Notes under the pieces: model-generated
The model's input: the letters and a program-made list of their open reading frames with translations, nothing else
Database searches by the model: none
What the model was told of the DNA's origin: nothing
Shown: piece after piece, positions 30,948-61,389 of the stretch
Layout: every line of letters starts with the position of its first letter
Numbering within the stretch: position 1 is the first letter of the stretch
Source of the DNA: an uncultured bacterium
Lineage (GTDB): Bacteria > Acidobacteriota > UBA6911 > RPQK01 > JADFOI01
NCBI GenBank assembly: GCA_965369785.1
Contig: CBDUTA010000001.1
Coordinates: 4,779-68,778, forward strand
DNA length: 64,000 nt
Direction of reading: 5' to 3'
Made by a program: the position numbers and the translations under genes

Positions 30948-31391
30948 TCAGAAAACGGGTTGAGGTGTAGGAAGAACGCTATACCGAGACTGGAGAAAAG
31001 CCACCAAGTCAACCAGTTGGTGCACCGTCATGGAATTTCCGTGGTTGGGCATTCGTGAGACACCTTCACTCATGGCGATCTGCCTCTTCGAGTAGCCACG
31101 CGCCAGCCTGTATGAGGGATGAATGATTGAAGTGACTAGATAGCCGTCTGTCACCCCTCGAAAGATCTCCCCTCCTAAAACAACCGGCTTGGCGAGATAT
31201 TCGGTGAGAGGCGGCAGCTCTACCCCATCTACCCTGTGACAGCCATAGCACTGCAGCTCAAGAAATGCGGCTTTTCCTCTTTCAGTATTCCCCTCCGGTA
31301 GACGAAAGCCGACCGGCGATCTGGGTCCTGAGTCACAGGCCACAACACCCATGAGAAGAACCGCGGTGACCCATAAGATGTGACGCTTCAT
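30948..31391 (-). CDS. monoheme c-type cytochrome (probable lipoprotein)
   Basis: A signal peptide ending in ...VVAC and a single CYGCH. Confidence 0.6.
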   Translation of the reverse strand: MKRHILWVTAVLLMGVVACDSGPRSPVGFRLPEGNTERGKAAFLELQCYGCHRVDGVELPPLTEYLAKPVVLGGEIFRGVTDGYLVTSIIHPSYRLARGYSKRQIAMSEGVSRMPNHGNSMTVHQLVDLVAFLQSRYSVLPTPQPVF

Positions 31392-34362: not shown

Positions 34363-35733
34363 CTACGTACATATTTGCTGGGAAAGTTGGTAGAGTAGAT
34401 TGAGCAAATCCCGTTCCAGCACTTCATAGGAATAGTACTGAAGTCCCAGCTCATAATTTTTCTGAGCCCTCTCTTCTCGCAGCTTCTCGTTTTCCAGAAC
34501 CTCTCGGATGTTGCGAGCCGCCTCCCGGGATGCGAAGCCGTCAATGGTAATGACTTGAAAACCCTTCGGCTCGATATCGACGATATAAATCGAGTAGCGG
34601 TTCAGAACGATGGGTTTCCGATAATAGATGGCTTCCAGGAAAGCGTTGCCGAAACCCTCGTAGCCAGAGGGATACGTCACCAGATCTGCACACTGGTAAA
34701 TGTCTCTGATGGAATATTGTTTTTCTCCGTTCGGCCCCTTTCCTCTGCGCGCTCCAATAAGATGCTCGATGGCACGAATCTGAACTCCCCAGTGCTCGGC
34801 ATACTCCAGGATGCGCCGGTAGTAATGGTCTCCTTCATCACCGCTGGCGTGAGAGATGACCAAGACAGGATTTTCCAGATTCATTAAAGAGACAATTTCA
34901 ATGGAACGCTCTATCAGCTTACGCGGGACCACTCGGGTGGGCTGCAGGACAAAAACGTCATTTTCTCCGAGTCCGATGTGCTCTCGCAGATCCGAGGCAT
35001 AGTCATCGGGAGGCGTTGGAAGCAACGCGTAATCATAGACATTGGGAATCAACGTATTGGATATGCCCTGACGGTGACTCAACTGTTCGCTGGCAATGGA
35101 GTTAATCACAACGTGGCACATGTTGTGAAGATCGGGAGGAAAAGCACAGGTGAGGTAATCTTTCGCACTATTGACCAGAAAGCGTTCCCTCTCCCAATAG
35201 AAATCGTGGTGATGAGCAATCGTGGGCAAACAAGTTTCAGCAATAAACTGGGTCAGTGCCAACCCCAAGGGGATGTTCATCGGAATAGCCAGCGCATTTT
35301 CGGCAACAATCAAATCGATACCAAACTGCTTTACAAACAGATACAGCTTTGATTTGAGGTGAGTCTTAATGTCTTCAATGGACTGAGTCACTTCAGGACT
35401 GCGATGGTGCCTGCCGAAACAGCCTGCACTAATTGCTTCAATACCAGGATGACCGAAATAGGCCTCTTCAACGACAAGGCTTTTCTCAACAGGTCGATCG
35501 CAAAGTCCAGCAAAATAGAAACATTCATACCCGTTTCGCTCTAATACTGCAGTCCACTTTTCGATCTCCAAAGAGACTCCATCCGTGCCTGCAATTCGTG
35601 TGGATACGAAACCCACCCTCTTATACCGCTGTCCTTGAAAAAGATCATTCATCGAAATATGCTCCACCGGGCTGACACATGCTCTAGCACTTCTGGATAA
35701 TAAACTATCCGGTTGCAAGTTATGGGTCAACAC
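34363..35733 (-). CDS. glycosyltransferase family 4 (TreT/sucrose-phosphate-synthase-like)
   Basis: GFVSTRIAGTDGVSLEIEKW near the N-terminus and EGFGNAFLEA near the C-terminus. Confidence 0.65.
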   Translation of the reverse strand: MLTHNLQPDSLLSRSARACVSPVEHISMNDLFQGQRYKRVGFVSTRIAGTDGVSLEIEKWTAVLERNGYECFYFAGLCDRPVEKSLVVEEAYFGHPGIEAISAGCFGRHHRSPEVTQSIEDIKTHLKSKLYLFVKQFGIDLIVAENALAIPMNIPLGLALTQFIAETCLPTIAHHHDFYWERERFLVNSAKDYLTCAFPPDLHNMCHVVINSIASEQLSHRQGISNTLIPNVYDYALLPTPPDDYASDLREHIGLGENDVFVLQPTRVVPRKLIERSIEIVSLMNLENPVLVISHASGDEGDHYYRRILEYAEHWGVQIRAIEHLIGARRGKGPNGEKQYSIRDIYQCADLVTYPSGYEGFGNAFLEAIYYRKPIVLNRYSIYIVDIEPKGFQVITIDGFASREAARNIREVLENEKLREERAQKNYELGLQYYSYEVLERDLLNLLYQLSQQICT

Positions 35734-35879: not shown

Positions 35880-36395
35880 GTGATGTCGCCGATGAACCTT
35901 CTCATTGTTTACTTTTCTTTCACATCAACGGTTCGCACACTGGCTCAAGCCGTGACATCCAAGTTGGAAATGAACGCTCAGGTTACCACCTGCACAATCG
36001 AACCACGGACCTCGCGCGGCTATTGGGGATGGCTCCCTCGCTCTTTCCTTCCCCACTGGCGCGTCCCCATCAAACCCACTACCACAGATTTAGAACCCTA
36101 TGATCTGGTTTGTCTGGGATTCCCGAAGTGGACGTTCGCCTGTCCTCCGGTGAACCAGTACATCAAAATGATGAAAGGCTGCCAGGGAAAGAAGATTGCC
36201 CTCTTCATGTGCAATAGGGGGTTTGACGAGAAGCGCTACCTGAACCATATGATCCGAAAGGTCTCCAAAAGGGGATCTCTGGTGGTAGCAACGCTTTCAG
36301 TGAAACAAGATGTGGTCCGAAAGGGGACCTATCAGGAGGCACTCGACTCGTTCTGTCGGCAGGCCAGGTCTGGTGACCGAATAGTTTTTCCCTGA
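35880..36395 (+). CDS. flavodoxin-like fold protein
   Basis: LLIVYFSFTSTVRTLAQAV is a flavodoxin-type N-terminal strand plus phosphate loop. 171 aa. Confidence 0.45.
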   Translation: MMSPMNLLIVYFSFTSTVRTLAQAVTSKLEMNAQVTTCTIEPRTSRGYWGWLPRSFLPHWRVPIKPTTTDLEPYDLVCLGFPKWTFACPPVNQYIKMMKGCQGKKIALFMCNRGFDEKRYLNHMIRKVSKRGSLVVATLSVKQDVVRKGTYQEALDSFCRQARSGDRIVFP

Positions 36396-36625: not shown

Positions 36626-36643
36626 GCATAATCCCGGCTAAGG
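36626..36643. repeat. copy of the CATAATCC(C/G)GGCT motif overlapping the HAO-like gene stop
   Basis: GCATAATCCCGGCTAAGG, compared with CATAATCCGGGCTAGCC at 38071 and CATAATCCGGGCTGGCC at 28110. Confidence 0.35.
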
Positions 36644-38038
36644 GGACTGCCCATAGCGCTCCCGATAGAACTCATCGATCTGTTCTCTTTCCTCTGGTGA
36701 CATGCCCTGCTTCCAAACGTGCTCTGGTCGTCCCAGGATCTCGTCGACGACTCTCAGCACTCTGGAATCACCCTGGGCCAGTTCCCGAGCCTGAGGGATG
36801 AGCTCGAAGTAGAAGCGATGGGCAACTTCAAAAAATCCGTGCCACTGGGTGTAATCGGGGCCCTGCATGGAAACACCCATCCGAGCCCGCCGGCCTTCAT
36901 GGTGCCAGAGGTGATAGAACGTCCACTCAATTTCGTCATCAAACGGGTCGGGCGTAATCTTTCCCCTCTGCCGAAGGACATCCATGATTTCTTGGGCAGG
37001 GCGGCCGAATTTGTCATTGTACATTTCCACCGTACTATCAAACTGGACATAAAAGGCATTCACGAAATCCGGAGCATGACACTGGAAACAGACATCCTTC
37101 ATGTCCTGTCGGCGCTCCTCCCAGTTTTCCAGCTTGTTGGAAATAACGGGACGGAGAGTCCAGGAAATCCGAGCCCCTACATCGTGGGTGACGGGCTGAT
37201 TGGGTGTGGCACTCATGTGGCAGGTGGCACAGGTGGGAGCTGCTGAGTAGTCCTCTCCCAACACCCAACTGTCGCTCTCCAGATTCATCTCGGCCAACCG
37301 GGTTCGATAGGCGATGCCATGCTTGCTTTCCTCATAAATCTCGATCTGGGGATGATCCGGCCCCATGTGACACTTCCCGCACACCTCAGGCTGGCGGGCC
37401 ATGGCCTTGGAGAAGACATGGCGCGAGTGACAGGCCCCACAAGAACCATTGGAACCGTCCAGATTCACCCGTCCAATTCCGGTATTGGGCCAGGTGAGAG
37501 GGTCAATGAGGGGCTTACCCTCGTCATTGCGTTGCGGGTTCCCCTCGTCGTCAACCAGGAACTGCACGGTTGAACCGTGGCACTGCCAACAGCCATTGGC
37601 GGCCGCCAGGGGACCCTCCGCCATCTCGCCCAGTACGTTGTCCAATGACCCGACGAATTGGGAGGCTTTGGCGTGGTGGCTGGCATCGAACTCCTCGACG
37701 ATTCGTTCGTGGCACTGGGCACAGTCCTTGGGCGTGACGATGGTGGCAATCATTTGTCCTTCGTGCAGGAAGGCATCCACATCGTTTTCCTCAGACCGGT
37801 GGCATTCATAGCAACCCACGCCCAGGACGGCATGGGCGCTATCGGCCCACTGGGCCCCCACAACCGGCGTTTTTTCCAGGTGGCAGTCGTAGCACTTGGC
37901 ACTCTCACCCGTGACCACGGGTTCAGGTCCAGACTGAAAGCGCTGCTTCCCTCCTTCCACCCAGGCCACGATGATGAGTGCGACCAGCAAAAGCAGACTT
38001 AAGCTGGCAACGATGATGCGCTTCATTTCCAAACTCAT
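36638..38038 (-). CDS. octaheme c-type cytochrome, hydroxylamine-oxidoreductase (HAO) family
   Basis: 8 CxxCH motifs (CYDCH, CYECH, CAQCH, CWQCH, CGACH, CGKCH, CATCH, CFQCH), a signal/anchor helix, and the TWPNTGIGRVNLDGSNGSCGACHSRH block typical of the HAO/ONR family. The start is at the first ATG (MSLEMKR), which has an AGGAGG Shine-Dalgarno. Confidence 0.8.
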   Translation of the reverse strand: MSLEMKRIIVASLSLLLLVALIIVAWVEGGKQRFQSGPEPVVTGESAKCYDCHLEKTPVVGAQWADSAHAVLGVGCYECHRSEENDVDAFLHEGQMIATIVTPKDCAQCHERIVEEFDASHHAKASQFVGSLDNVLGEMAEGPLAAANGCWQCHGSTVQFLVDDEGNPQRNDEGKPLIDPLTWPNTGIGRVNLDGSNGSCGACHSRHVFSKAMARQPEVCGKCHMGPDHPQIEIYEESKHGIAYRTRLAEMNLESDSWVLGEDYSAAPTCATCHMSATPNQPVTHDVGARISWTLRPVISNKLENWEERRQDMKDVCFQCHAPDFVNAFYVQFDSTVEMYNDKFGRPAQEIMDVLRQRGKITPDPFDDEIEWTFYHLWHHEGRRARMGVSMQGPDYTQWHGFFEVAHRFYFELIPQARELAQGDSRVLRVVDEILGRPEHVWKQGMSPEEREQIDEFYRERYGQSP

Positions 38039-38059
38039 GCCCAATACCTCCTATTTTTA

Positions 38060-38090
38060 GCCCGGACTATTCATAATCCGGGCTAGCCGG
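38060..38090. repeat. palindromic hairpin AGCCCGGActattcataaTCCGGGCT between cyt b and the HAO-like gene
   Basis: An 8-bp stem with a 10-nt loop, directly upstream of the HAO-like Shine-Dalgarno. It shares 14 nt with the motifs at 28110 and 36626. Confidence 0.4.
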
Positions 38091-39177
38091 GAGCCATGGC
38101 TTCCCAGAGGGTCAAGACGATCAAAAAGAATACAGCCGCAACTCCCACCCACACACTGATCTCACTTGCCGGATTGCGACGGCGAATCCTGGCGTCGATA
38201 AAAGGCCAGATGAGGGCCGTGAGGCCCATGAGTCCAATGGTGATCACGGCAACTTGCAGTCCGGTGAGCTGAAGCCAGCGGAAGGTCCAGTAAAAGTACC
38301 ACTCTGGTTTGATGTGAGAGGGGGTCTGAAGGGGATTGGCTTTCTCACCCAGCTCGGCCGGGAAGATGAGGGCCAGGCAAGTCAGCAAAATAGTCAGACT
38401 CAGGGCGAGGATCAGTTCAGTCAGAAAATGATCGGGATACAAGGGAAAAGTCTTCGATTCAGAATCGCTCTGTAAATCTGCTTTGAACTCGAAGGCAGTG
38501 ACCTCATGGAGTCGTACCAGCAAGATGTGACCGAAAATGAGCAGGGTGATGACGGTAGGCAGGATTCCAATGTGAAGGATAAAGAATCGAGTCAGCGTAT
38601 TGTCGCCGATGGTTTCTCCACCTCGTAACAATCGAGCCAACTGGTCTCCAATCAGGGGGACCGCTTCAGTCAAATTTCCGGCAACAGTAATTCCCCAGTA
38701 GCTGAGTTGCTCATAGAGGAGTGAATAGCCGGTGAATCCAAAAAATAGAGTCACCCCGACCAATCCGATCCCGATCATCCAATTGAGTTCCCGGGGCTTT
38801 CGGTAGGCACCGGTAAAGAAGACCCGCATCATATGCAGGATGACCGCCACAATCATCAGATTGCTGGACCACTTATGGATACTGCGTACAAACCAGCCGT
38901 AGGGCACCATCGTGCCGATTCTCTGAACACTTTCATAGGCCTCATTTGGGGCGGGCACATAGTAAAGGGTCAGAAGAATCCCAGTCACAACCTGAACGAT
39001 AAAAAGGTAGCCAGCCGTCCCTCCCAGGCACCACCACCAACTCTTCAGGTGGTGAGGCACCGGTTCGCTGGTAAAGTGGCGTAAAGAATCCAGATCTACG
39101 GGGATTCGTTCCTGCACCCATTCCAGGCGTCCTGTTGATGACGAGGATGAGGATTGAGAAGGCAGGGAACGACTCAT
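38083..39177 (-). CDS. cytochrome b of a Rieske/cytochrome b (bc1/b6f-type) complex
   Basis: The heme-ligand His pairs in helices B and D (HKWSSNLMIVAVILHMMRVFFTGAYRKPRELNWMIG ... FFILHIGILP...HILLVRLHE) and the PEWYFYW quinol-site motif. Confidence 0.85.
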   Translation of the reverse strand: MSRSLPSQSSSSSSTGRLEWVQERIPVDLDSLRHFTSEPVPHHLKSWWWCLGGTAGYLFIVQVVTGILLTLYYVPAPNEAYESVQRIGTMVPYGWFVRSIHKWSSNLMIVAVILHMMRVFFTGAYRKPRELNWMIGIGLVGVTLFFGFTGYSLLYEQLSYWGITVAGNLTEAVPLIGDQLARLLRGGETIGDNTLTRFFILHIGILPTVITLLIFGHILLVRLHEVTAFEFKADLQSDSESKTFPLYPDHFLTELILALSLTILLTCLALIFPAELGEKANPLQTPSHIKPEWYFYWTFRWLQLTGLQVAVITIGLMGLTALIWPFIDARIRRRNPASEISVWVGVAAVFFLIVLTLWEAMAPG

Positions 39178-39653
39178 AAACTCACAATCTCCTCCACTTC
39201 CAGAAAGAGATTGTTTCCGATCCTGCGAATGGGGAACTTTGTCAGGTTCTTTCCTTCAGCCGCCGGTGGGCCCTCTGTGGCTACTCCGTTGTTGTCAAAA
39301 ACCCCTTGATGACAGGGACAAAAGAATCGCTGGTTGCGAATTTCCCAGTGCACCTTGCAACCCAGGTGCGGACAGGTGTTGGAGAGGGCAACCACCTCTC
39401 CGCCTATGTTCGTGACCAAAGCCTGGTTCCCGTCAGGCAACGTGTAGGTCTTACTTTCTCCCGTCAGAAGGTCAGCCGCTGGGGCCAGAAAGATGGTGCG
39501 CAGACGACGCTGACCGCGCAGGGGATACACGTATCGGAGTGCAAACAGAAGGCCTGTCCCGTAGCTGAGAACTAACCCACCCCACATGAACAGGTTAATC
39601 AGTGCCTGACGGCGACTCTGTTTCCTGGTTGATCCTGGTTTCGTCGTTTCCAC
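39174..39653 (-). CDS. Rieske [2Fe-2S] iron-sulfur protein
   Basis: Box I CPHLGCKV and box II CPCHQGVF, an N-terminal TM anchor, and a stop that overlaps the cyt b start (ATGA). Confidence 0.8.
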   Translation of the reverse strand: METTKPGSTRKQSRRQALINLFMWGGLVLSYGTGLLFALRYVYPLRGQRRLRTIFLAPAADLLTGESKTYTLPDGNQALVTNIGGEVVALSNTCPHLGCKVHWEIRNQRFFCPCHQGVFDNNGVATEGPPAAEGKNLTKFPIRRIGNNLFLEVEEIVSL

Positions 39654-39792
39654 GTCTTCCCCCTCACAGAGTTGATTCGGGAAAGATTTTACCTGCCAGC
39701 CCTGATCATTAATCAGTTCTCGTCACGGAGGGGATCTTCATCGAATGGATGAAGGAGGCACTAGCCGAGGATCGGGTGGTCTTCCCCGCATT

Positions 39793-40689
39793 TTATTCGT
39801 TGTCGAGTTTGAAGGTGAGAACCGGGCAAGAGGCCGTTCGAACGAGTCGCTCCGTGGTGCTTCCCAATAACATCCGGTCCAGACCGGAGAGGCCGTGGGT
39901 ACCCATGACAATGAGGTCCACCTGGTTTGCACGGGCAAACTTACTGATTTCTGCGTGAGCTTTTCCGTCTCCGATCTCGACGTGAACATCGAGGTCTCGG
40001 AGACCCTCCTCTCCCAGAGTCGATCTCAGCGACTCTTTGGCTTCTTCAGCGATTTGAGGCAGCTCCCGGGCCATCGACTCCCTCCATTTGAGGTAAAAAG
40101 CAGGGTGCACTTCCTGTTCAACGACGTAAAGGACTTGAAGATGAGCGCTATACCGGGCTGCCATAGCCCTTGCTTTACGCGCCGCCTTCTTCGAGTGCTC
40201 CGAAAAATCGAAAGCCACCAGAATTTCTTGGTAATCAGGATTATTTCGATACTCCTTCCGATCCTGGGCCACAGTAAGGACGGGACAGGAAGCATGTCGC
40301 ACCACCCGTTCAGCCACACTGCCTACAAAGAACTGCGCCAAGGCCGAATGCCCATGAGTGCCCATCACCGTCAGGTCGATCCCCTTCTCTTCAATGAAGT
40401 CGAGTATACCCCTGGCTGGAGCGACTTCCCGGACGACTTCAGTCGTGACTTTCTGAGAGGCTTCCGTCGCCTGGGAAATTTCACCCAGGCTCTTTTCGAT
40501 ATACCCCCTGAAATTTCCCTCATCTAACTGTTGATACTCCGGTGCACTGGGATCATCACTGTACGGAGTAGCCACATGGAGTATGTTGATGTCCGCTTCG
40601 TATTTCTGGGCGATCTTCAGAGCATGCGGTAACGCAGTGTTGGCGGCTCGAGAGAAGTCAGTAGGAAAAAGGACCTTTCTTATTCCCAT
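39793..40689 (-). CDS. tandem-domain universal stress protein
   Basis: Two USP halves (VLFPTDFSRAA... and ILVAFDFSEHS...LIVMGTHGLSGLDRMLLGSTTERLV). Confidence 0.8.
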   Translation of the reverse strand: MGIRKVLFPTDFSRAANTALPHALKIAQKYEADINILHVATPYSDDPSAPEYQQLDEGNFRGYIEKSLGEISQATEASQKVTTEVVREVAPARGILDFIEEKGIDLTVMGTHGHSALAQFFVGSVAERVVRHASCPVLTVAQDRKEYRNNPDYQEILVAFDFSEHSKKAARKARAMAARYSAHLQVLYVVEQEVHPAFYLKWRESMARELPQIAEEAKESLRSTLGEEGLRDLDVHVEIGDGKAHAEISKFARANQVDLIVMGTHGLSGLDRMLLGSTTERLVRTASCPVLTFKLDNE

Positions 40690-40861
40690 TATTCAGGGCC
40701 TTTCCAATATCAGTCACCCTGCCTGCAGGAGGCCGGCTACAAGGACAATGCTCTGGCTATCATAGCACCTTCCTGACGGTATTACTGTTATGTAGGCACC
40801 CATCCGAATAGGGGGACAGCCTGTTCCGAAATCAGGACGAAACGGCCCATCGATTGGGGCA

Positions 40862-40910
40862 TATACCCGAACCGAATGAGTCGGCTGCCCCTCATTCGAC
40901 AGCGAATCCC
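40862..40910. promoter_or_regulatory. two GAAT...ATTC palindromes in the divergent USP / CbcL-like promoter region
   Basis: GAATGAG-N10-CTCATTC and GAATCC-cct-GGATTC lie within 50 bp of each other, between divergently transcribed genes. Confidence 0.3.
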
Positions 40911-40976
40911 CTGGATTCCCCGGTGGCCTCCAACCGCACCTGTTGGCACACCGTGTGCTCGGTATAAGATAGTGTT

Positions 40977-42989
40977 ATGCGGAGGACTTCTCCAACTTAT
41001 CCCAGATGGAGAAAAGGAGAGCTCATCTCAGTATTGACTGGATTGTTTATATTCCGTCTGCTTCTTGTTTCGCGGGCATTTGCCCTAGGTCTGGGCGTAC
41101 TCAGCACTGCTTCGGCCATGTCCCTCGCAGCACCCCAGGAAATGCCTTGTGACGGGTGTCATGAAGTGTCAGCAAGTTCCCTTCATCGTGACTTTGGATG
41201 CATCAGTTGCCACTCGAATGTCCAGGATTTTCCCCATCAAGATTCTGTACTTGAAGAACTCTCCGGCAGCGAACTCTGTTCTCAATGCCATGACTCTACT
41301 GCCAGTCTGCTCAAAGAGAGCGTTCATGGGGAAATACTGGATTGTCAGACTTGCCACGGCGAAGCACACTCCCTCTTGCCGGTCACCGACCTGGCTTCTC
41401 CGGTATCCCCCTTAAGACAGATTCAATTGTGCAGCCAATGCCATGATACTCCGGAAGTAGTAGACGACTACTTAGGCAGTGTTCACGGTCGGGCGTTGGT
41501 CGTTTCAGGCCTCATCATCGCTCCGTCATGCACCGATTGTCACGGCAGTCATGCCATCTTCCCGCCTTCTGATACTCGAGCCACCGTTTCCCACAACCAG
41601 GCACCCCAAACATGCGGAACCTGTCACGCCTATATACTCGATGTCTGGGTCAAGGAAAGCGCTCACGGTCAAGCTTGGCAACAGAGTGAGGAGGGACCCG
41701 GATGCCCCACTTGTCACGGTTCCCATCAAGTGATGGAACCGCGCAACGCCGACCAACGACTGCAGTTTCCGGAAAGCTGCGGAGGCTGTCACGAAGATCG
41801 CTACACGACCTATCGCGACAGTTTTCATGGCCAGGTAACAGATCTGGGATTCCAGACTGCAGCCATCTGCTCGGATTGCCATACGCCCCATGCCAACCTT
41901 CCCGCCGATAGTCCACAATCGTCAGTCCACCCGACCCATCTCAAGGACACTTGTGGGAAATGCCACGCAGAGGTAAGCCCAGGGTTCCTAACCTTCGACC
42001 CTCACCTTGACCCCTCTGACCCCACGGGGAATCGAGAAGTCTACTTCGTGTGGCTTTTCATGACCGGTCTTTTGATCTCTGTGTTCGGGTTTTTTGGACT
42101 CCATGATCTGCTCTGGTTCCAGCGCTCACTGGTAGCCTATTTCAAAGGAGAGTTCGCCAGTGTCAGAAAGACAAATGGACCTTACATTAAGCGTTTTACT
42201 TCCGTTGATGTATGGGTTCATGTTGCTATTGTGGTGAGTTTCTTGATCCTTGCCATGACCGGTTTGCCCTTGAAATTCCATTTTGCCGATTGGGCAAAGA
42301 ATCTCACTGGTGCAATGGGTGGGGTTGGTTTGACTCGTTCCTTACACCGCTTTGCCGCTGTGGTGACCTTTGGCTATGCTTTTTTTCATTTGGGCCACCT
42401 TGTTCAGAAGATCGTTTTCAGAAAAGACTTTGGCCTGCTGTGGGGATGGCGCTCCATGGTGCCCAGGCCAAAGGATTTCGTGGACGTCTGGCACAATCTC
42501 CGCTACTTTCTCTATCTTGGACCGCGTCCCCGTTTGGATCGTTGGACTTATTGGGAAAAGTTTGATTACTTTGCGGTTTTCTGGGGGATCATCATCATCG
42601 GAGTCTCCGGATTAGCTCTTTCGTTTCCCAGCTTTTTCACCCGCTTCTTCCCGGGATGGTTTCTGAACGCGGCTTTCCTTATTCACAGTGATGAAGCGCT
42701 CCTGGCAGTGGGCTTTATCTTCATGTTTCACTTCTTCCACACTCATCTTCGTCCTGAGAGCTTCCCATTGGATCCCGTCATCTTCACCGGCCGGGTACCT
42801 CTCGAAAGGTTCAAAGAGGAAAGGCCCGTCGAATACCAGCGTTTGGTGCAGACCGGTCGCTTGGAAACTCTCATCGTCGGTCCTCCTTCCCGTAAGCAGA
42901 TTCGAATGGCTGGCATTTTCGGTTTTGCTGCCATGGCGGTGGGCATAGGATTGATGCTGGCCATTCTTTGGAGCTTCTTTGCTTATTAG
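40977..42989 (+). CDS. CbcL-like inner-membrane cytochrome: 11-heme c-type domain fused to a HydC/FdnI-type diheme cytochrome b
   Basis: 11 CxxCH motifs in residues about 55-330, then 4-5 TM helices with conserved His (GLHDLLWF, WVHVAIVV, SLHRFAAV, MFHFFHTHL), as in the formate dehydrogenase/hydrogenase gamma subunit. Confidence 0.7.
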   Translation: MRRTSPTYPRWRKGELISVLTGLFIFRLLLVSRAFALGLGVLSTASAMSLAAPQEMPCDGCHEVSASSLHRDFGCISCHSNVQDFPHQDSVLEELSGSELCSQCHDSTASLLKESVHGEILDCQTCHGEAHSLLPVTDLASPVSPLRQIQLCSQCHDTPEVVDDYLGSVHGRALVVSGLIIAPSCTDCHGSHAIFPPSDTRATVSHNQAPQTCGTCHAYILDVWVKESAHGQAWQQSEEGPGCPTCHGSHQVMEPRNADQRLQFPESCGGCHEDRYTTYRDSFHGQVTDLGFQTAAICSDCHTPHANLPADSPQSSVHPTHLKDTCGKCHAEVSPGFLTFDPHLDPSDPTGNREVYFVWLFMTGLLISVFGFFGLHDLLWFQRSLVAYFKGEFASVRKTNGPYIKRFTSVDVWVHVAIVVSFLILAMTGLPLKFHFADWAKNLTGAMGGVGLTRSLHRFAAVVTFGYAFFHLGHLVQKIVFRKDFGLLWGWRSMVPRPKDFVDVWHNLRYFLYLGPRPRLDRWTYWEKFDYFAVFWGIIIIGVSGLALSFPSFFTRFFPGWFLNAAFLIHSDEALLAVGFIFMFHFFHTHLRPESFPLDPVIFTGRVPLERFKEERPVEYQRLVQTGRLETLIVGPPSRKQIRMAGIFGFAAMAVGIGLMLAILWSFFAY

Positions 42990-43055
42990 ATCGGGGCTAT
43001 AGGAGTCAGCCATCTTCCGGTTCGCCATTTCAAGGAGCACCACCACGCCTGGTTG

Positions 43056-44765
43056 TCATGGGTGGCACATTGCACAAAGCTCGCGGTTCAAGGAAACAGG
43101 TTGTCCAGCCGCAAGTTGATGACAGTCGGCACAGGCATTTCCCATCCCCAGGTGCAGTGAGTGAGAGAATTCTCCTCGAAAAGACTGCACCACACCCTCC
43201 ATCATTCCAGAATGGCATTGCTGGCAATCCAGCTCAGTCTCCTGGTGGTGACAATTTGCGCAGCCTTCGGCTTCAAAGCGAACCACTTCTCCCACAGGTT
43301 TTTCTTCATGGGGCCGATGGCAAGCCTGGCATTGGAGTTCCTGCTCCACGGCGTGTATTGAATGGCTGAACTCTCGACCGAATTGAGGTCCGCTCTGTCC
43401 TTCGATGCCCTGGTGACACTGGATACAACTCGATTCGTAGGGGACTTCCGGCCAGGGTATGGTGAGTTCAGAGCGACCGATTTGCCCTCGTGCCTGATTG
43501 AGAAATTCATGGGCCCGAGACAGTAAGGCAAAGGAATACCTGACGTTGTGCACACCTTTGCCTTCCTCCACCAGAGTAAGGTTGTGGTACGCATCCGCCA
43601 GTGCTTGTGGTTCAGCACCTGAGAAAAGAGAATCGGTCTCTTGCAGCTGTCGTTTCAAAAGCCCTGTGCGCTGGCTTACCCCTTCTTTCCAGCGCAAGTA
43701 AGTCGCACGATAACGGGCGCCGTGGCAGGACATGCAGGAGACCTCTGTTGCCCGTGCCGTCTCTTTCTCCTGCCCGGGTATCTGAAAATGACAACCCTCG
43801 CAAGACACTCCGGCAGTAAACATGGAGGCAGGCATGGGAGGCACTCCCCGTCCCCCTATGCCGGCATAGAGGTCACGCTGAGGGGAATGTCCGGCCCGGT
43901 GGCAGCTTTCACAGTCTGTTTGAGCTGCTTCCAGGTTCGGCGGTTGGCCATGCTGGATCTCGAGGTGGCAGTCCATGCAATTCACCTTATGTTCTGTCAC
44001 GTGCATCTGGTGCATGAGAGCCGTATTCTCATACTGAGCCAGTCGTGGGGGATCGTTGTGACAGGTAAAGCAACGCTCTTGAGGAACGTTTCCGCCTGAT
44101 CCGGTTAACTCGTGAGAATGGCACCAGCTACAATCCATGTCGAAGCGTTTCACATCACCGTGGTCAAACGTCATCATTTCCTTCTGGACCACCATTTCAG
44201 GGATAGCGTGGCACAGGGTGCAGCGGCTAGTGCTTTCTCCGGGTCCTTCTCCTTTGAAATGGCACAGGATACAGGTTGAAGTCGTCACCGTAATGTGCAG
44301 ACCCTGGACGATCTGGCTGTGACAGGAAGTGCAGCGTAGTTTTATGCCGTGACGCAGTTCCGTGAGATGGGGCCGATGATCAAACACAACATCAGCGAAC
44401 AGTTCTCGTCCAGAAAGAAGTCGTCTCTGGTGGCAGCGAAGACAGGCCGCGTCGTCGATTTCAGTCCATGGGTTAGTTCCGTAGGTGCCGGTGAAATAGG
44501 AGGCAACCATGGAAAGCGCTTCCCATTTCTTGCGGATTTCGTTGGTCACTCCAGGGGGGATGTGGCAATCCACGCAAGGCACATCGCTGTGACTCGAGTT
44601 TTGCCACGAGTCAAAATAGGGCTTCATCACGTGGCAGGTTCCACAGAACTGGGGCTGGCTGGAGGCCTCCGCGCCCAGAACAATGGCAATCACCCCTAGA
44701 CCTAGAAGGAGGCTTGAGGAGTAGATCACCCAACGAATCCTGGCAGACGGGATGAATCGTTTCAT
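43056..44765 (-). CDS. membrane-anchored 18-heme c-type cytochrome with an N-terminal NapC/NirT/NrfH-type quinol-dehydrogenase module
   Basis: A TM helix, then FCGTCHVMKPYFDSWQNSSHSDVPCVDCHI (the NrfH/NapC signature), and 18 CxxCH in total (the last is CAMCHP at the C-terminus). The start is at the Met whose ATG overlaps the upstream stop (ATGA). Confidence 0.75.
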   Translation of the reverse strand: MKRFIPSARIRWVIYSSSLLLGLGVIAIVLGAEASSQPQFCGTCHVMKPYFDSWQNSSHSDVPCVDCHIPPGVTNEIRKKWEALSMVASYFTGTYGTNPWTEIDDAACLRCHQRRLLSGRELFADVVFDHRPHLTELRHGIKLRCTSCHSQIVQGLHITVTTSTCILCHFKGEGPGESTSRCTLCHAIPEMVVQKEMMTFDHGDVKRFDMDCSWCHSHELTGSGGNVPQERCFTCHNDPPRLAQYENTALMHQMHVTEHKVNCMDCHLEIQHGQPPNLEAAQTDCESCHRAGHSPQRDLYAGIGGRGVPPMPASMFTAGVSCEGCHFQIPGQEKETARATEVSCMSCHGARYRATYLRWKEGVSQRTGLLKRQLQETDSLFSGAEPQALADAYHNLTLVEEGKGVHNVRYSFALLSRAHEFLNQARGQIGRSELTIPWPEVPYESSCIQCHQGIEGQSGPQFGREFSHSIHAVEQELQCQACHRPHEEKPVGEVVRFEAEGCANCHHQETELDCQQCHSGMMEGVVQSFRGEFSHSLHLGMGNACADCHQLAAGQPVSLNRELCAMCHP

Positions 44766-45931
44766 GTTCTTTCTCTTAAAACCTTTTGCCGAAAACGCAA
44801 GAGAATCCAGATGGTTAACACGACGTAAAACCAAAAAATCACCAGACCCAGACGACGAATCCTTCGTTCTCCCAACTTCCCCTGGATCTCTCCCTGGACC
44901 TCCTCTCCCAAAGAGCGAGCGGTCCGGGTGAAATTTTCCATCGCTTCGAGCGACACGGTGTGCACGGCAGGTTCGGCTTCCAACAGGTACGTTCGGGCCT
45001 CTTGCAAACGAGCCTGGTAGTCTTCAACGTAAATCGGAATTTCCTCCGCTTCCGCGATCAGTTGGCGAGCTTGATCTATCTCCTCTTGGGCACGCTGGAA
45101 CAGAACCTCCATTTTTTCTCCCAGGGTGACCTGCGACGAATCCTGTCCATGACAACCGGCACACAACAGCGCCAAATCTTCCCGATCCGCCACCTGTACA
45201 GAGTGGTTTCCGTGACATGAGATACACTCGGGCAATCCAGCCTCGAGCATTCCGGCCAGATGCGGACCTGCCTGGAAGGCTGAACGGGCGGCCGTGTGAC
45301 AGCTCCCGCAGACCTTGTCCACGTCTCCCACACCAGGCGGTGCCGCCCCGTGGATCCCGTGGCAGCGGGCACATTCCGGGGCGTTGTCGTTCCCCCTCTC
45401 GAGTAGCTCTTCTGCATGTATGCTTTGCAGGTAGTCGTGGTATGGGGCTGTGTCTTTCCCGTAGTGGGCCATCAGTTCCGTATCTCCATGGCAGCGCCCG
45501 CAGGTATCCGGTATGTTCTCAACAAACACCCGACTTTCCGGGTTTTCTGGAGAAAGGATATTGTGTGTGCCGTGACAATCCGTGCACACCGCAATCCGGG
45601 AATCGCCATCGGCCAACCGCATTCCATGCTGGCTAATTTGGTAAAGCGCATACTGGTCGGTGGGCAGATTGTAGGGACGCATGCGCTGAGGATCCGAATG
45701 ACACTCAGCACAGAATCGAGGAACATCCCGTCTAGAGATGGTGCCTCGAAAACTCCCCCTGTGGGCCGCCTCTGTGGACACCGTGTTGGGGTTGCCGCCG
45801 TGACAATCTGTACAGCTGGTAGACTCTTGAGCATGAATGGAGGATTGGTAAAGAGCACGCACGTCGGGGTGGCACAAACCGCATTGTTCGCTCTGCATGG
45901 GAACCACAAGAATCAGCAGTAGAAGGATCAC
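44762..45931 (-). CDS. nonaheme c-type cytochrome with a C-terminal membrane anchor
   Basis: 9 CxxCH motifs, a short N-terminal signal, a C-terminal hydrophobic helix (LGLVIFWFYVVLTIWILL), and a GTG start 4 nt after the cyt b stop. Confidence 0.75.
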   Translation of the reverse strand: MILLLLILVVPMQSEQCGLCHPDVRALYQSSIHAQESTSCTDCHGGNPNTVSTEAAHRGSFRGTISRRDVPRFCAECHSDPQRMRPYNLPTDQYALYQISQHGMRLADGDSRIAVCTDCHGTHNILSPENPESRVFVENIPDTCGRCHGDTELMAHYGKDTAPYHDYLQSIHAEELLERGNDNAPECARCHGIHGAAPPGVGDVDKVCGSCHTAARSAFQAGPHLAGMLEAGLPECISCHGNHSVQVADREDLALLCAGCHGQDSSQVTLGEKMEVLFQRAQEEIDQARQLIAEAEEIPIYVEDYQARLQEARTYLLEAEPAVHTVSLEAMENFTRTARSLGEEVQGEIQGKLGERRIRRLGLVIFWFYVVLTIWILLRFRQKVLRERT

Positions 45932-45935
45932 CCTG

Positions 45936-47072
45936 TCAGACCCTCACATCCAGGATCAGGCCATAATAAGAAAAAAAGAGCCACAGCAAGAAGACTGCGA
46001 AGCCGAAGCCGAGTGCGATTTTCCTTTTTCGCTGAGGTGCCCCGGACCGAAAATCGAGGGCAGGCAAGAAAATAAACACCAGCAGCACAATCATCAGGAG
46101 ACTACTCCTGACCCAAAGAGGAATCCACGTCGGAAAGAGTTCGATGAAACCGTAGGGTGCCAGCAAATACCAAGGCATTCGGGTTCCCACGGCCGTTTGG
46201 TAGGGATTGACAGGCTCCCCAAAGGGCGTGGCCCAGAGAACTGATAACGTTACTAAAACCCCAAAAATCGCCAAGGTGAGGATCAAGATACTATAGAGAT
46301 GGGCCAGGTAAGCGCCCGATCCTCCCTTCTGTTCCTCTCCCGGGATCTCACTGAGACCTACACGCCGGATCCCCGAAAAGTTGATATAGAGAACACACCA
46401 AAAGACTAAAGGCAGAATCGCAACGTGCAAGAAGTAGAAGCGAGTCAGCATGACGTTCTCCCCCGGCAACCCACCCACCAAGAAGGCGGAAAGCGCGCCG
46501 ATCACCGGTATGGAGAAAAGCACCTCAAGAGCTCGTATGCTGGACCAGTAGGATTGGTTGGTCGACGCTAACAGACGGCCGGAGAATTCAAGATGAGTTG
46601 CCACCAGAAAGAGTACGGCTCCGGCGACCCAAATCAATTCTCTGGGAGACCGGTAGAGTCCACGAAAGTAGAAACGGATCAAACGAATAATGAGGAGCAT
46701 CAACAAGAGTTGCGCACCCCAATTGTGCATTTGATGTACAAACCAGCCAAAGGGAATATCTCTGACAATAGTGAGGACACTTGGATAGGCTTCTTGGGCC
46801 GTCGGACGATAGTAGAAGGCCAGAAGCCCTCCTGTGATCAACTCGATGACAAACAGAATAAGAGTCAGCAGGCCCAGCACTCGAGGCCACCGTGAATAAG
46901 AAGGTAGGGGCTTTGCCAAAGCCTCTTTCAGGGCCTCCTTGAGCGGCTTGCTAGTATCTACTTCTGTATAGAAAAGGCCAGAGATAGTGAGCAGGGAGAA
47001 GATCTCTGTCAGATTGATACGCTGCTCCAACCACCTGACAACCTGGCTTGTCCTGCTTGGGCGTTGTGCCAT
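45936..47072 (-). CDS. cytochrome b of a second Rieske/cytochrome b complex
   Basis: WFVHQMHNWGAQLLLMLLIIRLIRFYFRGLY and FYFLHVAILP His-containing helices, and a PWYLL motif. The start is at MAQRPS, which has an AGGAAGG Shine-Dalgarno in the gap after the Rieske stop. Confidence 0.8.
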   Translation of the reverse strand: MAQRPSRTSQVVRWLEQRINLTEIFSLLTISGLFYTEVDTSKPLKEALKEALAKPLPSYSRWPRVLGLLTLILFVIELITGGLLAFYYRPTAQEAYPSVLTIVRDIPFGWFVHQMHNWGAQLLLMLLIIRLIRFYFRGLYRSPRELIWVAGAVLFLVATHLEFSGRLLASTNQSYWSSIRALEVLFSIPVIGALSAFLVGGLPGENVMLTRFYFLHVAILPLVFWCVLYINFSGIRRVGLSEIPGEEQKGGSGAYLAHLYSILILTLAIFGVLVTLSVLWATPFGEPVNPYQTAVGTRMPWYLLAPYGFIELFPTWIPLWVRSSLLMIVLLVFIFLPALDFRSGAPQRKRKIALGFGFAVFLLWLFFSYYGLILDVRV

Positions 47073-47097
47073 CACACCTACCCTTCCTGGAACTTTC

Positions 47098-47547
47098 TCA
47101 CATGTGAACCAAGATCTCCCCACGCCGGATCTCAGTTGGATAGCTGGTCAGTGGCTTGGTGGGCAAACCCGACATCACCGAACCCGTGGAGCTGAACACT
47201 CCATTGTGGCAGGGGCAAACCAGGTTTCGATTCTGGCTGTTCCAGTTCAACACGCAGCGAAAGTGAGTACACAAGGCGGACACTGCGACAAGTTCATCAT
47301 TGCTCAACCGGACAAGATAGAGAGGAGCACTCCCATGACGGATCAGGCGAGCTTCCCCCGCCTTTAGAGATTCTGCGTCTCCGGCCTGAACAATATTCTG
47401 CCCTGCCCAACGAGTTGAAGGAGGAACCTTCAAAAAACTGGCTACTACACCCACCAGACCCACACCCCACAAAGACAAGAAAAAGAGGGTCAGCGACTGG
47501 AAAAGAGTTCTACGCTCTGTATCCATGGCTTCGACCTTTTCTGTCAT
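47098..47547 (-). CDS. Rieske [2Fe-2S] iron-sulfur protein (second copy)
   Basis: CTHFRC ... CPCHNGVF boxes and an N-terminal TM/Tat-like region (RRTLFQSLTLFFLSLWGV). Confidence 0.8.
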   Translation of the reverse strand: MTEKVEAMDTERRTLFQSLTLFFLSLWGVGLVGVVASFLKVPPSTRWAGQNIVQAGDAESLKAGEARLIRHGSAPLYLVRLSNDELVAVSALCTHFRCVLNWNSQNRNLVCPCHNGVFSSTGSVMSGLPTKPLTSYPTEIRRGEILVHM

Positions 47548-47734
47548 CGTCCCAATCCCAATTCCTTCAAGTCCCTTTTCAGGGCCTATTATGCAGTAAA
47601 AAGGGCAACTCAGATACCCATCAAAAGATTCTCCGGAAAACAGAAGGGGGCAGACAGGTCTCAGCCAAGAGGGAAACTTTTCGCTTTACCACCTCTACAC
47701 GCAGAGCTGACCATCGTGGGCCAAGGCAGTGCAA

Positions 47735-48097
47735 TCATTCCTCAATCTTAGAAAGCCTGCGGGTATATTCAGCTACCGCCTTGAGATCCTCATCGCTGAT
47801 CTTGCCCTCATACTTCGGCATCTTACCCAGGCCTTCACTCAAGGTCTTCACCAATTCGGCAACGGAAGTTCCCTGCTTCCACGACCCGGCAGTCAGGTCG
47901 GGAGTCTTCATCATCTTTCCTGCTTTTGTGTCTGCCTTGCCATCATCTCCATGACACATGAGACACTTGGAATCGTAGACTTTCTTTCCGGGCGAGTCTT
48001 CTTCGGCAAAAACCAGTGAGAGGGCCGCCAGTGTAAAAAAACCGATCACCAGGATGAAACTTGAGTAAAGGGCCTTTCTCTTTGTTGGGTCAAACAT
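47735..48097 (-). CDS. monoheme class I c-type cytochrome (c552/c6-like)
   Basis: A signal peptide, a single CLMCH and a distal Met (GKMPKY). The start is at the ATG after an AAGGAGGGA Shine-Dalgarno. Confidence 0.65.
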   Translation of the reverse strand: MFDPTKRKALYSSFILVIGFFTLAALSLVFAEEDSPGKKVYDSKCLMCHGDDGKADTKAGKMMKTPDLTAGSWKQGTSVAELVKTLSEGLGKMPKYEGKISDEDLKAVAEYTRRLSKIEE

Positions 48098-48146
48098 ACA
48101 TCCCTCCTTTTTCAATCTGTGGTGTCCGTTGTAAGGCCGTCATCCC

Positions 48147-48668
48147 TTACACCGGAAGACCCACCTGGGCCAGGAGTTCGTCGGCCAGGTTACCGTAGTG
48201 TTGGTGGCACTGCCCCGAGAGCTCCACTTCGTCGAACTTGACGCGGAGACCTTCCAATTCGGCTTTCGAAAGCACACCGCGTCCCATCGGAAACAGAACG
48301 TTGTCCTCCTTCTGAATATGGCTGCGCAAAAGCTCTACATAGTTGAGGGATTCGCGGCGCAGGCCGGCCAAATCACCCCCTTTGATCAGCTCTCGCATAG
48401 ACTGGACATGGCCACGACCGATCTCGTGTTCCTCGCACATACACCCGATCGGGCCGGCCTCGCGAGGAATTCCCTTTTCTTCCAGGACGGGAAAGAGGCG
48501 CTCCTCTTCCTTTCCATGGTGACACTTGTCGGCAAAATTGGCAATGAAATCCACCGCCTGCTCGTAAAACTCAAGGGGCAGCTCTTGTTCGGCAGCAGCG
48601 CTGAGAGCTGTGAGGACCTTTTCAATGATGCGGTGCTCATCCATGAGTTCCTGGATGGGGTCTAGCAT
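48147..48668 (-). CDS. hemerythrin-like (HHE cation-binding) domain protein
   Basis: The H-HxxxE / H-xxxE patterns (MDEHRIIEKVL, CHHGKEEERLFP, CEEHEIGRGHV, LRSHIQKEDNVLFP). Confidence 0.7.
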   Translation of the reverse strand: MLDPIQELMDEHRIIEKVLTALSAAAEQELPLEFYEQAVDFIANFADKCHHGKEEERLFPVLEEKGIPREAGPIGCMCEEHEIGRGHVQSMRELIKGGDLAGLRRESLNYVELLRSHIQKEDNVLFPMGRGVLSKAELEGLRVKFDEVELSGQCHQHYGNLADELLAQVGLPV

Positions 48669-48916
48669 GGAGAATCTCCTTTCTAATGGTAAAAAGGGCA
48701 GTAATACTTGTTATTCACAGAATCTTCAGGAGCAAAACCTGTGCCAACAGAAGGTTTCCCTATCACACGCCGGTGCTTGACTGAAAAGGACGTCAATTCA
48801 CCCGTAAGTGAGCCAAATAGCCCAGTTTTCCTCGTGGATGCCATTGATTTATGGGCGCCACCTGTTGGATTTCAAATTGCAATACCAATAAATGTTATGA
48901 TCCAGGAGTGGATAAG

Positions 48917-49285
48917 ATGACTGCCGTACTGGTTGCTTTCTTGATCGTGTTCGCCCCCATGGGCGTCAATGGTGCGATCTGTCACTCCCTTATGTCTCAG
49001 CAGTCGGATCAGAACTGCCAGGGTTTGGCGAGTGAGCAGGCCTCCCCGTCTTGCGATCTGAGCCATTGCGACACTCCATGCCAGGTCACCTCACAGGAAA
49101 AACCCTTTTCTCTGCCGAAGTTCACTGAGCGGACACCCGTGAACCCAGTCACAGTCGCTCCTGCCCTCAAGACTGAGGTAGCCGAAGGTTTCTTTTCCAC
49201 CCCCTTGCTCTGGACCAAGGCAGCCAAAGAGCCCCACAAGCTTGGCGTCAAGGTCTATCTTCTGAATACCTCCTTCCTGATTTAA
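48917..49285 (+). CDS. secreted Cys/His-rich small protein of unknown function
   Basis: A signal peptide (MTAVLVAFLIVFAPMGVNGA), then ICHSLMSQQSDQNCQ...SPSCDLSHCDTPCQ. It lies immediately upstream of the cus-type operon. Confidence 0.4.
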   Translation: MTAVLVAFLIVFAPMGVNGAICHSLMSQQSDQNCQGLASEQASPSCDLSHCDTPCQVTSQEKPFSLPKFTERTPVNPVTVAPALKTEVAEGFFSTPLLWTKAAKEPHKLGVKVYLLNTSFLI

Positions 49286-49414
49286 CTCCCGGTTTTCATT
49301 TCGTGTCGACTCGATTCGGAACCAGAGGACCTCACTCGGATTTTTGAGGCCCACTGAGTCTCTGAATCTCTACAGTTGCCCGTTGTATCCAGCAAGAAAG
49401 GACGAACTTCTCGT

Positions 49415-49505
49415 GGAGTCTGACAGCTGTCAATTGTGACAGTTTACAGCGGTTCGTACCCTTCCACACAGTGTACGAATACCTGACAGTGTACGATTAC
49501 CTGGG
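49415..49505. promoter_or_regulatory. operator-like repeat array upstream of the TolC-CusB-CusA operon
   Basis: A perfect 12-bp palindrome TGACAGCTGTCA, a second TGTGACAGTTTACAG, and a tandem 18-bp-period direct repeat ACAGTGTACGAATACC / ACAGTGTACGATTACC. TGACAG occurs three times in about 70 bp. Confidence 0.4.
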
Positions 49506-49590
49506 GTGCGGTTCCTTCAGATGGGTCTCGACACACGATTCGCATCCGGGATTATAATCACAGGAGGGGGCCAAATTGGGAGGATCATCC

Positions 49591-50904: not shown

Positions 50905-50915
50905 TGAGGTGACGC

Positions 50916-52412: not shown

Positions 52413-52430
52413 TCGAACTGGACAAAAGCT

Positions 52431-56214: not shown

Positions 56215-56217
56215 ACT

Positions 56218-56697: not shown

Positions 56698-56764
56698 ATC
56701 TATTTCCAAGAGAGTCCCAGGCCGGTAAAATTCAAGTCTACTGTCTTTACTATCCCTTACCTCT

Positions 56765-58051: not shown

Positions 58052-58054
58052 GGC

Positions 58055-61209: not shown

Positions 61210-61389
61210 GATCTGCTTCGCTTTATCTTATTGTCCAGCCAAATCGGATGGGGGCCGAAAGATTCTCCACGAAAAGAGAGCCGCCAGCCGCTTGCGACGG
61301 ATCCGCAAGGGGAGCTTCCGATTGGCGATCTCTGGGAAAATTTCATCTCCCTCCACCTGGCTGAGGAGTTTCTCTACAGGGGGCTGTAT

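Follow-up and report, generated by a model that had tools for sequence, protein, structure and literature searches.

We analysed a 64,000-nucleotide stretch of DNA from an uncultured Acidobacteriota bacterium (GenBank assembly GCA_965369785.1, contig CBDUTA010000001.1, positions 4,779 to 68,778 of the forward strand), hereafter the window, and describe a respiratory gene island at 36638-48668 that encodes two Rieske/cytochrome b units and several large multihaem cytochromes. One of these units, module 2, appears to be an undescribed and widespread 27-haem complex whose cytochrome b is predicted to lack the ligands of haem bH. The mechanism that defines Rieske/cytochrome b complexes, the Q cycle, depends on haem bH. 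We consider it probable, although well short of certain, that the locus holds two autonomous quinol-oxidising modules and not one complex: module 1 (genes C, B and A, preceded by D), which would serve N-oxide reduction, and module 2 (genes K, J, I, H, G and F, with E), which would operate without a Q cycle. A sequence-only reading of the same DNA had taken the whole island as one high-haem electron-transfer supercomplex, with an electron sink either extracellular or periplasmic.

The cytochrome b of module 2, H, aligned without gaps to the solved cytochrome b6 chains 2ZT9_A and 1VF5_A. From b6f structures, we take His86 and His187 of b6 to be the ligands of haem bp/bL, and His100 and His202 to be those of haem bn/bH. 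H keeps the equivalents of the first pair (H133 and H233), but the second pair is replaced: R147 (codon 46683-46685) stands in place of His100 and N248 (codon 46380-46382) in place of His202. The four-histidine feature of Rieske/cytochrome b complexes is present in B, the cytochrome b of module 1, and absent from H. The motif of the quinol-oxidising Qo site reads MPWY in H and PPWY in most of the H family; PPWY and APWY occur naturally in catalogued cytochromes b, among which MPWY is not listed (PMC4122944). Three residues before the first bL ligand, at residue 130 (codon 46734-46736), the Arg of b6 (WLIRSIH) is replaced by His (WFVHQMH), and this change is conserved across the bH-less cytochromes b. 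Translation of H probably begins near 47072 rather than at 47123.

With each GTDB species represented by one genome, a scan with F, the 18-haem cytochrome of module 2, yielded 174 loci, of which the best 80, all from metagenome-assembled genomes (MAGs), were examined in detail. The closest GTDB match to F was only 60% identical. Labels in the 80 loci were mainly Eisenbacteria, Acidobacteriota (Polarisedimenticolia, Blastocatellia and Thermoanaerobaculia), Binatia, Bipolaricaulota, Fischerbacteria and Fraserbacteria. The order Rieske-cytochrome b-G-F was intact in every locus with enough upstream sequence (64/64). Among the cytochromes b preceding G-F, Arg occupied the His100 position in about 63 loci, and the residue at the His202 position of these Arg-bearing proteins was His, Thr, Asn, Ser or Gly. 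The ten most distant loci keep all four histidines; of these, seven carry the labels Binatia, Bipolaricaulota (or Bipolaricaulia) or Fraserbacteria, and one the label delta proteobacterium. Because Arg is fixed in about 63 loci and the four histidines are found in the most distant ones, the alignments indicate that loss of the bH ligands is derived and fixed and is not decay. MAGs labelled Patescibacteria, Hyphomicrobiales, Bacteroidota or Clostridia also carry the 18-haem module (loci L017, L020, L022, L032, L045 and L065). Their level of identity equals that of the Acidobacteriota and Eisenbacteria MAGs. Lateral transfer and errors of binning or labelling seem equally likely here.

The haem composition of module 2 is fixed. 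The true start of F is the ATG at 44765 (its open reading frame (ORF) had been listed as 43056-44834), which gives a product of 569 amino acids and places the F start codon on the G stop codon in an ATGA overlap. All 18 CxxCH motifs of F were invariant in 20 homologues, of which more than 1500 exist, and among the relatives in the 80 loci 69 have 18 haems. The N-terminus of F belongs to the NapC/NirT/NrfH family (PF03264, 52.6 bits; cutoff 24.1); the F family profile matched NrfH (2J7A_C) there, with an E-value of 8e-11, and OcwA (6I5B) in the middle, with an E-value of 5e-21. The first haem motif, CGTCHVM, is of the NrfH-like form CxxCHxM (motif as defined in bioRxiv 10.1101/2023.05.03.539133), which is found in 70 of the 80 relatives. 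Against the NrfH, NapC and TorC equivalogs, F scored below each cutoff. G has a C-terminal hydrophobic segment at residues 360-378; nine haems are present in 74 of 79 relatives and a C-terminal anchor in 78 of 79. G occupies the gene position and predicted topology of cytochrome c1/f. In one locus among L010-L089, G and F are apparently fused into a single 27-haem ORF. The Rieske protein I has the boxes CTHFRC...CPCHNGVF with cluster ligands and disulfide cysteines present, and the Rieske proteins of module 2 share a G-x-F signature; by the predictor cited in PMC4122944, this points to a low-potential cluster of menaquinol type.

E, transcribed from the opposite strand, is predicted to have the CbcL architecture, with a multihaem c domain followed by a dihaem b domain of FdnI/HydC type. 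The E family profile matched FdnI (1KQF_C) over its full length (E-value 1e-12); the window protein on its own gave weak FdnI matches (E-value about 1e-4), and PF01292 was found in 21 of 25 relatives. Histidines 343, 376, 415, 457, 570 and 585 of E are conserved, and hydrophobic peaks lie at 357-375, 412-430, 532-550, 566-584 and 646-664. The family comprises 783 clusters at 50% identity (E-value ≤ 1e-30). Of the 80 module 2 loci, 35 have an E-like gene beside the module, immediately upstream of the Rieske gene in 24 and shortly downstream of F in 11. In Blastocatellia loci, the module is preceded by J-like genes, and locus L005 keeps the order from K to F. Between them, L001 and L005, whose individual genes are 77-94% identical to those of the window, show the gene order of the island. 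A literature search found no paper on the 9+18-haem module or on a bH-less Rieske/cytochrome b complex, although the reviews by ten Brink (2013) and Dibrova (2013) may mention one.

We compared module 2 with the electron-transfer systems of Geobacter. The conserved GSU2930-2937 (ext/Cbc) cluster encodes a Rieske/cytochrome b unit and cytochromes with 2, 10, 12 and 5 haems (PMC2825233, PMC5877670); like module 2, it replaces a monohaem c1 by large multihaem cytochromes. Of the curated NCBIfam models, ExtP gave the top score with B (230 bits) and with H (148 bits), in each case under its cutoff of 290. G matched ExtM and ExtS at E-values of only 1e-5 to 1e-6, far below the cutoffs, and neither F nor G shows anything beyond weak haem-motif similarity to ExtM, ExtN and ExtS. 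Equivalence to the Ext proteins (ExtMNOPQS, GSU2930-2935) was rejected on these scores, and the Geobacter cluster lacks both an 18-haem protein with an NrfH-type head and the fixed 9+18 composition. The sequence-only reading had likened E to CbcL (GSU0274) and F to ImcH (GSU3259) of Geobacter sulfurreducens, the architectures of which have been described (bioRxiv 10.1101/2023.05.03.539133). The first likeness was borne out: E and CbcL share a c domain and a dihaem-b-type membrane domain, with 11 haems in E and 9 in CbcL. The second holds for the membrane-proximal haem head, which is of NapC/NirT/NrfH type in both, but not for the architecture. ImcH has three transmembrane helices, seven haems (one or two helices and five to nine haems in homologues) and a His/Gln haem 1, whereas F has one helix, 18 haems and CxxCHxM. 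F was rejected as an ImcH member on helix count, haem count and haem 1 motif and, unlike ImcH, is always encoded within a Rieske/cytochrome b operon.

Module 1 has an intact cytochrome b. B aligned to cytochrome b6 (7R0W_I, E-value 9e-57) and also to subunit IV, and it keeps all four haem histidines (H101, H115, H202 and H217), the haem ci site cysteine (Cys50) in its CxGG motif and a PEWY Qo motif at residue 291. Gene C overlaps gene B by 4 nucleotides; the Rieske boxes of its product (CPHLGC...CPCHQGVF) contain the cluster ligands and disulfide cysteines, and the N-terminus, as read from the sequence, has an RR motif followed by a hydrophobic stretch. The octahaem protein A matched PF13447 with 98 bits (cutoff 21.9) and aligned along its entire length (100%) with metagenome protein P0001, to which it is 94% identical. 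Its closest solved relative is IhOCC (4QO5; E-value 6e-42, or 3e-58 with the family profile), at approximately 24% identity, followed by Nitrosomonas HAO and the HAO-like, HOX and HDH proteins of Kuenenia. HAO-family chains were the sole significant PDB matches of A, and a Foldseek search with the model of A repeated this result, with IhOCC as the best match. Against the curated hydrazine dehydrogenase/HAO equivalogs of NCBIfam, A reached 73 bits (NF052343, cutoff 900). Alignments to HAO end at chain residue 404, short of the region of the Tyr cross-link by which oxidising HAO is told from reductive forms, and A has GPDY where IhOCC has GQDW. IhOCC (Igni_0955) of Ignicoccus hospitalis is an octahaem protein of the same HAO family that occurs in soluble and membrane fractions; it is archaeal, and the available part of its description gives its physiological role as not established and reports no link to a Rieske/cytochrome b unit (PMC4429474). 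More than 8000 homologues of A, at 60-94% identity, occur across phyla, and the mean column identity was 72% in 20 sequences from Acidobacteriota, Binatia, Myxococcota and Planctomycetota.

We examined the context of A in 80 metagenome loci, 52 of which had enough upstream DNA. A Rieske/cytochrome b pair lay upstream of the octahaem gene in 22 of the 52. NapA(B) was adjacent in seven loci, all with the pair, and in none without it. Two metagenome loci have the order napD-napA-napB-Rieske-cytb-octahaem, with A about 72% and B about 70% identical to the window proteins (range 69-73%), and genes for universal stress proteins (USPs) and hemerythrins lie near both trios. USP genes adjoin the trio in L001, L002 and L003, and hemerythrin genes lie near nap-linked trios in L003 and L172. 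In L090, a bare trio, with an A homologue from the 90% cluster of P0001, stands among housekeeping genes on a 3.9 Mb contig.

Some neighbours of these octahaem genes were recorded separately. ScdA/RIC proteins repair iron centres and are linked to nitric oxide (NO) stress; genes resembling them, recognized by eye from their N-termini, lie directly upstream of octahaem genes that lack the Rieske/cytochrome b pair in L124 and L128. TorD-like genes, identified by N-terminal sequence and not by profile, also adjoin some stand-alone octahaem genes. The nap-Rieske-cytb-octahaem locus L002 further encodes, at 1-160 and 19384-21407, a MamS/MamX (magnetochrome) domain protein and a cytochrome bd oxidase; it also has a CbcL-like gene beside ResB/CcsA, and an MtrB_PioB porin gene that follows one for a multihaem cytochrome.

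The arrangement of module 1 has a precedent. Caldithrix abyssi, a nitrate ammonifier that lacks NrfA, carries nap together with a Rieske protein (Cabys_2558), a cytochrome b (Cabys_2557) and an octahaem epsilon-Hao (Cabys_2556), and this trio was proposed, as a genomic prediction, to be a route from quinol to nitrite (PMC5317091). By gene order, the two are alike: the Caldithrix genes are ordered as C-B-A, and they show the same nap linkage as orthologues of the window trio. They differ in that nap adjoins the trio in Caldithrix, whereas the window trio has no adjacent nap and is preceded by the tandem USP gene. Because the same arrangement was already predicted in C. abyssi, module 1 is, by analogy, probably a quinol:nitrite/hydroxylamine/NO reductase. 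For the same reason it is not a new kind but a further case of a known arrangement, predicted before from genomes. The Rieske/cytochrome b/octahaem combination is a candidate NrfA-independent pathway of nitrite reduction. The sequence-only reading had called the island uncharacterised, which appears right for module 2 and not for module 1. It had also regarded such an arrangement as known mainly from anammox bacteria, which the Caldithrix trio beside nap (PMC5317091) and the Geobacter cluster (PMC2825233) contradict.

In the anammox complex Kuste4569-4574 of Kuenenia stuttgartiensis, multihaem cytochromes take the place of cytochrome f beside Rieske/cytochrome b and an HAO-like octahaem protein, and a non-canonical fate has been proposed for the bL electron there (PMC12954380). 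It shares with the window a b6-like Rieske/cytochrome b unit together with an HAO-like octahaem protein. It differs in having an NAD(P) oxidoreductase subunit, split b6 and subunit IV proteins and a hexahaem subunit, none of which lies beside C-B-A, and the anammox Rieske proteins are of high potential (+303 and +335 mV), whereas the window Rieske signatures are of the low-potential G-F type. All ORFs in 36638-48668 were assigned and none encodes an NAD(P) oxidoreductase, on which ground an anammox-type NAD(P)-linked complex was rejected.

The island consists of eleven intact ORFs, A-K, where the sequence-only reading had placed them, with domain assignments backed by Pfam or NCBIfam (Table 1). 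All are on the minus strand except E. The 46 c-type haem motifs first counted (8 in A, 11 in E, 18 in F and 9 in G) were recovered, and J adds one to give 47. Both Rieske/cytochrome b operons are real and complete by Pfam, the monohaem cytochrome c, hemerythrin and tandem USP genes embedded among them were likewise identified (J, K and D), and frameshifted or pseudogene ORFs were rejected on the full-length alignment of A and the invariant haem motifs of F. Housekeeping genes also placed the window in Acidobacteriota, and the nearest named relatives, at about 70% identity, were mostly from that phylum. The sequence-only reading had also placed hemA and three further cytochrome genes elsewhere in the window; these were located at 62924-63910 for hemA and at 20389-20904 (cytochrome c'), 30948-31391 and 61788-63029 (dihaem cytochrome c).

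Table 1 Genes and promoter-like sites of the island (window positions)
Feature	Position	Strand	Evidence or location
A, octahaem c-type cytochrome, HAO/IhOCC family, N-terminal hydrophobic helix	36638..38044	-	8 CxxCH, PF13447
B, canonical cytochrome b, fused b6 + subunit IV	38083..39177	-	PF00033, PF13631, PF00032
C, Rieske [2Fe-2S] protein, module 1	39174..39653	-	PF00355
D, tandem universal stress protein, upstream of C-B-A	39793..40689	-	PF00582 twice, E-value 3e-70
Sigma-54-type promoter-like site TGGCACACCGTGTGCT	40944..40959	+	18 nucleotides upstream of annotated E ATG
E, CbcL-like fusion: 11 c-haems + C-terminal FdnI/HydC-type b-cytochrome membrane domain	40977..42989	+	11 CxxCH, FdnI profile match
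F, 18-haem cytochrome, one N-terminal transmembrane helix, NrfH-type head	43056..44765	-	18 CxxCH, PF03264
G, nonahaem cytochrome, C-terminal transmembrane anchor	44762..45931	-	9 CxxCH
H, cytochrome b of module 2, predicted to lack both haem bH ligands	45936..47123	-	PF00033, E-value 1e-32
I, Rieske [2Fe-2S] protein, module 2	47098..47547	-	PF00355
J, monohaem class-I cytochrome c, signal or anchor sequence	47735..48115	-	PF13442, PF00034
K, hemerythrin-domain protein, first gene of K-J-I-H-G-F	48147..48668	-	PF01814, E-value 7e-23
Perfect sigma-54 promoter consensus TGGCACAGGTTTTGCT	48731..48746	-	63-78 nucleotides upstream of K ATG

We next consider whether these genes form one system or two. 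A single supercomplex for extracellular electron transfer would fit the total of 47 c-type haem motifs, the CbcL architecture of E and the domain that F and E hold in common with OcwA, a terminal reductase of the Thermincola cell surface. It would also fit the MtrB_PioB porin and multihaem protein of L002, which lie approximately 8 kb from the trio, a candidate beta-barrel protein of 776 amino acids near the module in three loci, and the pairing of two Rieske/cytochrome b units in 15-17 other species. In other genomes, however, the modules are separate. The trio occurs alone or in napDAB operons, and its octahaem gene associates with nap and NO-stress genes and not with metal-reduction genes; Rieske-cytb-9-18 occurs without a close HAO-like gene in all 80 module 2 loci, where A-like matches had only 26-28% identity (L084 and L087). 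No conserved outer-membrane partner was found within 10 kb in a clustering of flanking ORFs from the 80 loci, a naive procedure contaminated by antisense shadow ORFs in these high-GC genomes and used for the negative only; the E-type b-domain alone stood out. Among the annotated ORFs of the window we likewise identified no outer-membrane porin-cytochrome gene, as the sequence-only reading had noted, and an OprB-type porin at 20935-22218 is unrelated to MtrB.

The putative sigma-54 sites point the same way, as they cover only K-F and E. TGGCACAGGTTTTGCT is the only zero-mismatch sigma-54 match in the window, and an exact match to its 11 specified bases would be expected about 0.03 times in 128 kb. 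TGGCACACCGTGTGCT has one mismatch to TGGCAC-N5-TTGCT, and the same variant is found upstream of E in L001 (1087-1102, minus strand). Upstream of C and D, the minus strand yielded no sigma-54 site; annotation of the window's ORFs turned up no gene for a sigma-54 activator, and a scan for FNR boxes gave no enrichment. Since the modules separate in other genomes, the supercomplex is only partly supported, and we judge it unlikely. Their separate occurrence, and the restriction of sigma-54 sites to K and E, argue for autonomy, and we read the island as two autonomous modules side by side, with a residual possibility of functional pairing.

From the gene content, motifs, ligand loss, synteny and nap linkage described above, we infer the following electron paths, substrates and acceptors. 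In module 1, the Q-cycle-competent b6-type core B would oxidise menaquinol, and electrons would pass from the Rieske protein C to the octahaem protein A and on to periplasmic nitrite, hydroxylamine or NO; the Q cycle would make N-oxide reduction electrogenic. In module 2, menaquinol would be oxidised at the Pro-type Qo site of H. If haem bH is absent, there is no path to the quinone-reducing Qi site and a Q cycle is impossible, so the bL electron must leave sideways and both quinol electrons would be delivered to the periplasmic side. One electron would travel from the Rieske protein I to G, standing in for c1/f, and the other from bL to a nearby haem on the positive (P) side of the membrane, which could be the NrfH-like haem in F or the b-haems in E. 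The two electrons would end in a periplasmic network of 27-38 haems (nine in G and 18 in F, with or without the 11 in E), and E would be an associated second membrane redox module.

Two further possibilities concern the direction and energetics of module 2. The bH-less H may be a periplasm-directed, electron-bifurcating quinol oxidase, in which the Rieske protein would feed G at high potential and bL would pass its low-potential electron sideways to the membrane-surface NrfH-type haem of F or the b-haems of E. We regard this as quite unlikely; if true, bifurcation could drive reduction of a very low-potential acceptor or energise a separate transmembrane loop, and would add a third way of operating to two others of the bc superfamily, the Q cycle and the bifurcation to NAD(P)H proposed for anammox.

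Alternatively, module 2 might run in reverse, with electrons from an extracellular or periplasmic donor such as Fe(II) entering F and G and reaching the quinone pool via Rieske/cytochrome b or the FdnI-type domain of E acting as a redox loop. The petI complex of Acidithiobacillus ferrooxidans runs in reverse, and in formate dehydrogenase-N (1KQF) the FdnI-type subunit reduces menaquinone at the negative (N) side of the membrane, as the FdnI-type domain of E might. The Qo motif's second residue in the H family is Pro and not Glu or Asp (PPWY or MPWY), and Kao and Hunte tied APWY to complexes proposed to run in reverse and found PPWY in A. ferrooxidans (PMC4122944). A reversed Q cycle, however, needs haem bH and a Qi site, both of which H lacks by our alignment, the G-x-F signature predicts a low-potential, menaquinol-type cluster, and carbon-fixation or oxidase genes are not linked to the module; we consider reversal very unlikely. 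It is extremely improbable that H is decaying or non-functional and module 2 a relic with independent haem proteins, as the loss of two of four canonical haem ligands might suggest, because the Arg fixed in about 63 species, the retention of the bL ligands, an xPWY-type Qo motif and a full-length eight-helix protein, and the perfect synteny with the Rieske gene, G and F indicate purifying selection on a changed function and not decay.

Several observations weigh against two independent modules, one of them without a Q cycle. About half of the bH-less family retains the His202 equivalent, so a non-canonically ligated cofactor may occupy the bH pocket. In 15-17 other species, a canonical four-His Rieske/cytochrome b unit with a paralogous 9-haem protein stands beside the bH-less module; because canonical and bH-less units are recurrently paired, the pairing may be functional and not accidental. 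In the lineage of the window, it happens that the octahaem-bearing trio takes the part of the canonical partner. For module 1, the window contains no nap or other N-oxide reductase gene. A sigma-70 promoter and terminator scan performed at chance level, so operon boundaries are drawn from gene spacing. The AlphaFold2 (AF2) models were poor, with predicted local distance difference test (pLDDT) scores of 52 for F and 59 for A, too low for inferring haem-to-haem distances.

Other features of the window lie outside the two modules. Cytochrome c' binds NO; a cytochrome c'-like gene (171 amino acids, PF01322; 20389-22218 region, minus strand) directly downstream of the OprB-family porin gene may be a further link to N-oxide chemistry. 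The octahaem gene is flanked by a weak flavodoxin-like ORF below the Pfam cutoff (35880-36395, plus strand) and a GT4 glycosyltransferase gene (34363-35733, minus strand), and the same flank positions in L001 hold a Glycos_transf_1 (GT4-type) gene and a 180-amino-acid ORF without Pfam matches. In L005, a relative with 77-90% identity, the hemerythrin gene has ccmE and hemA immediately upstream (2780-4854), unlike in the window, where hemA is approximately 14 kb from K (48700-63910). The intervening block contains CusC/B/A-type efflux genes (49576-55535), an MMPL transporter (58891-61209), LolA-like and DUF1302 genes and the dihaem cytochrome c gene (61788-63029), and is, relative to L005, a rearrangement or insertion. 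Rfam and tRNA scans of the window gave no matches.

Module 1 shows that the Rieske/cytochrome b/octahaem route is very common and highly conserved across phyla. Module 2 is a natural experiment on how a Qo site functions without a Qi site: it has kept its Rieske protein, its haem bL, a motif of Qo type and its rigid set of 9+18-haem partners despite the predicted loss of both bH ligands. At least 174 species-level genomes carry the module, about 63 of the 80 examined have the His100-to-Arg replacement, and the four-His versions of Binatia and Bipolaricaulota provide a built-in comparison. These findings bear on the non-canonical bifurcation proposed for anammox Rieske/cytochrome b complexes and on the respiration of abundant uncultured phyla of soil and sediment, such as Acidobacteriota and Eisenbacteria.

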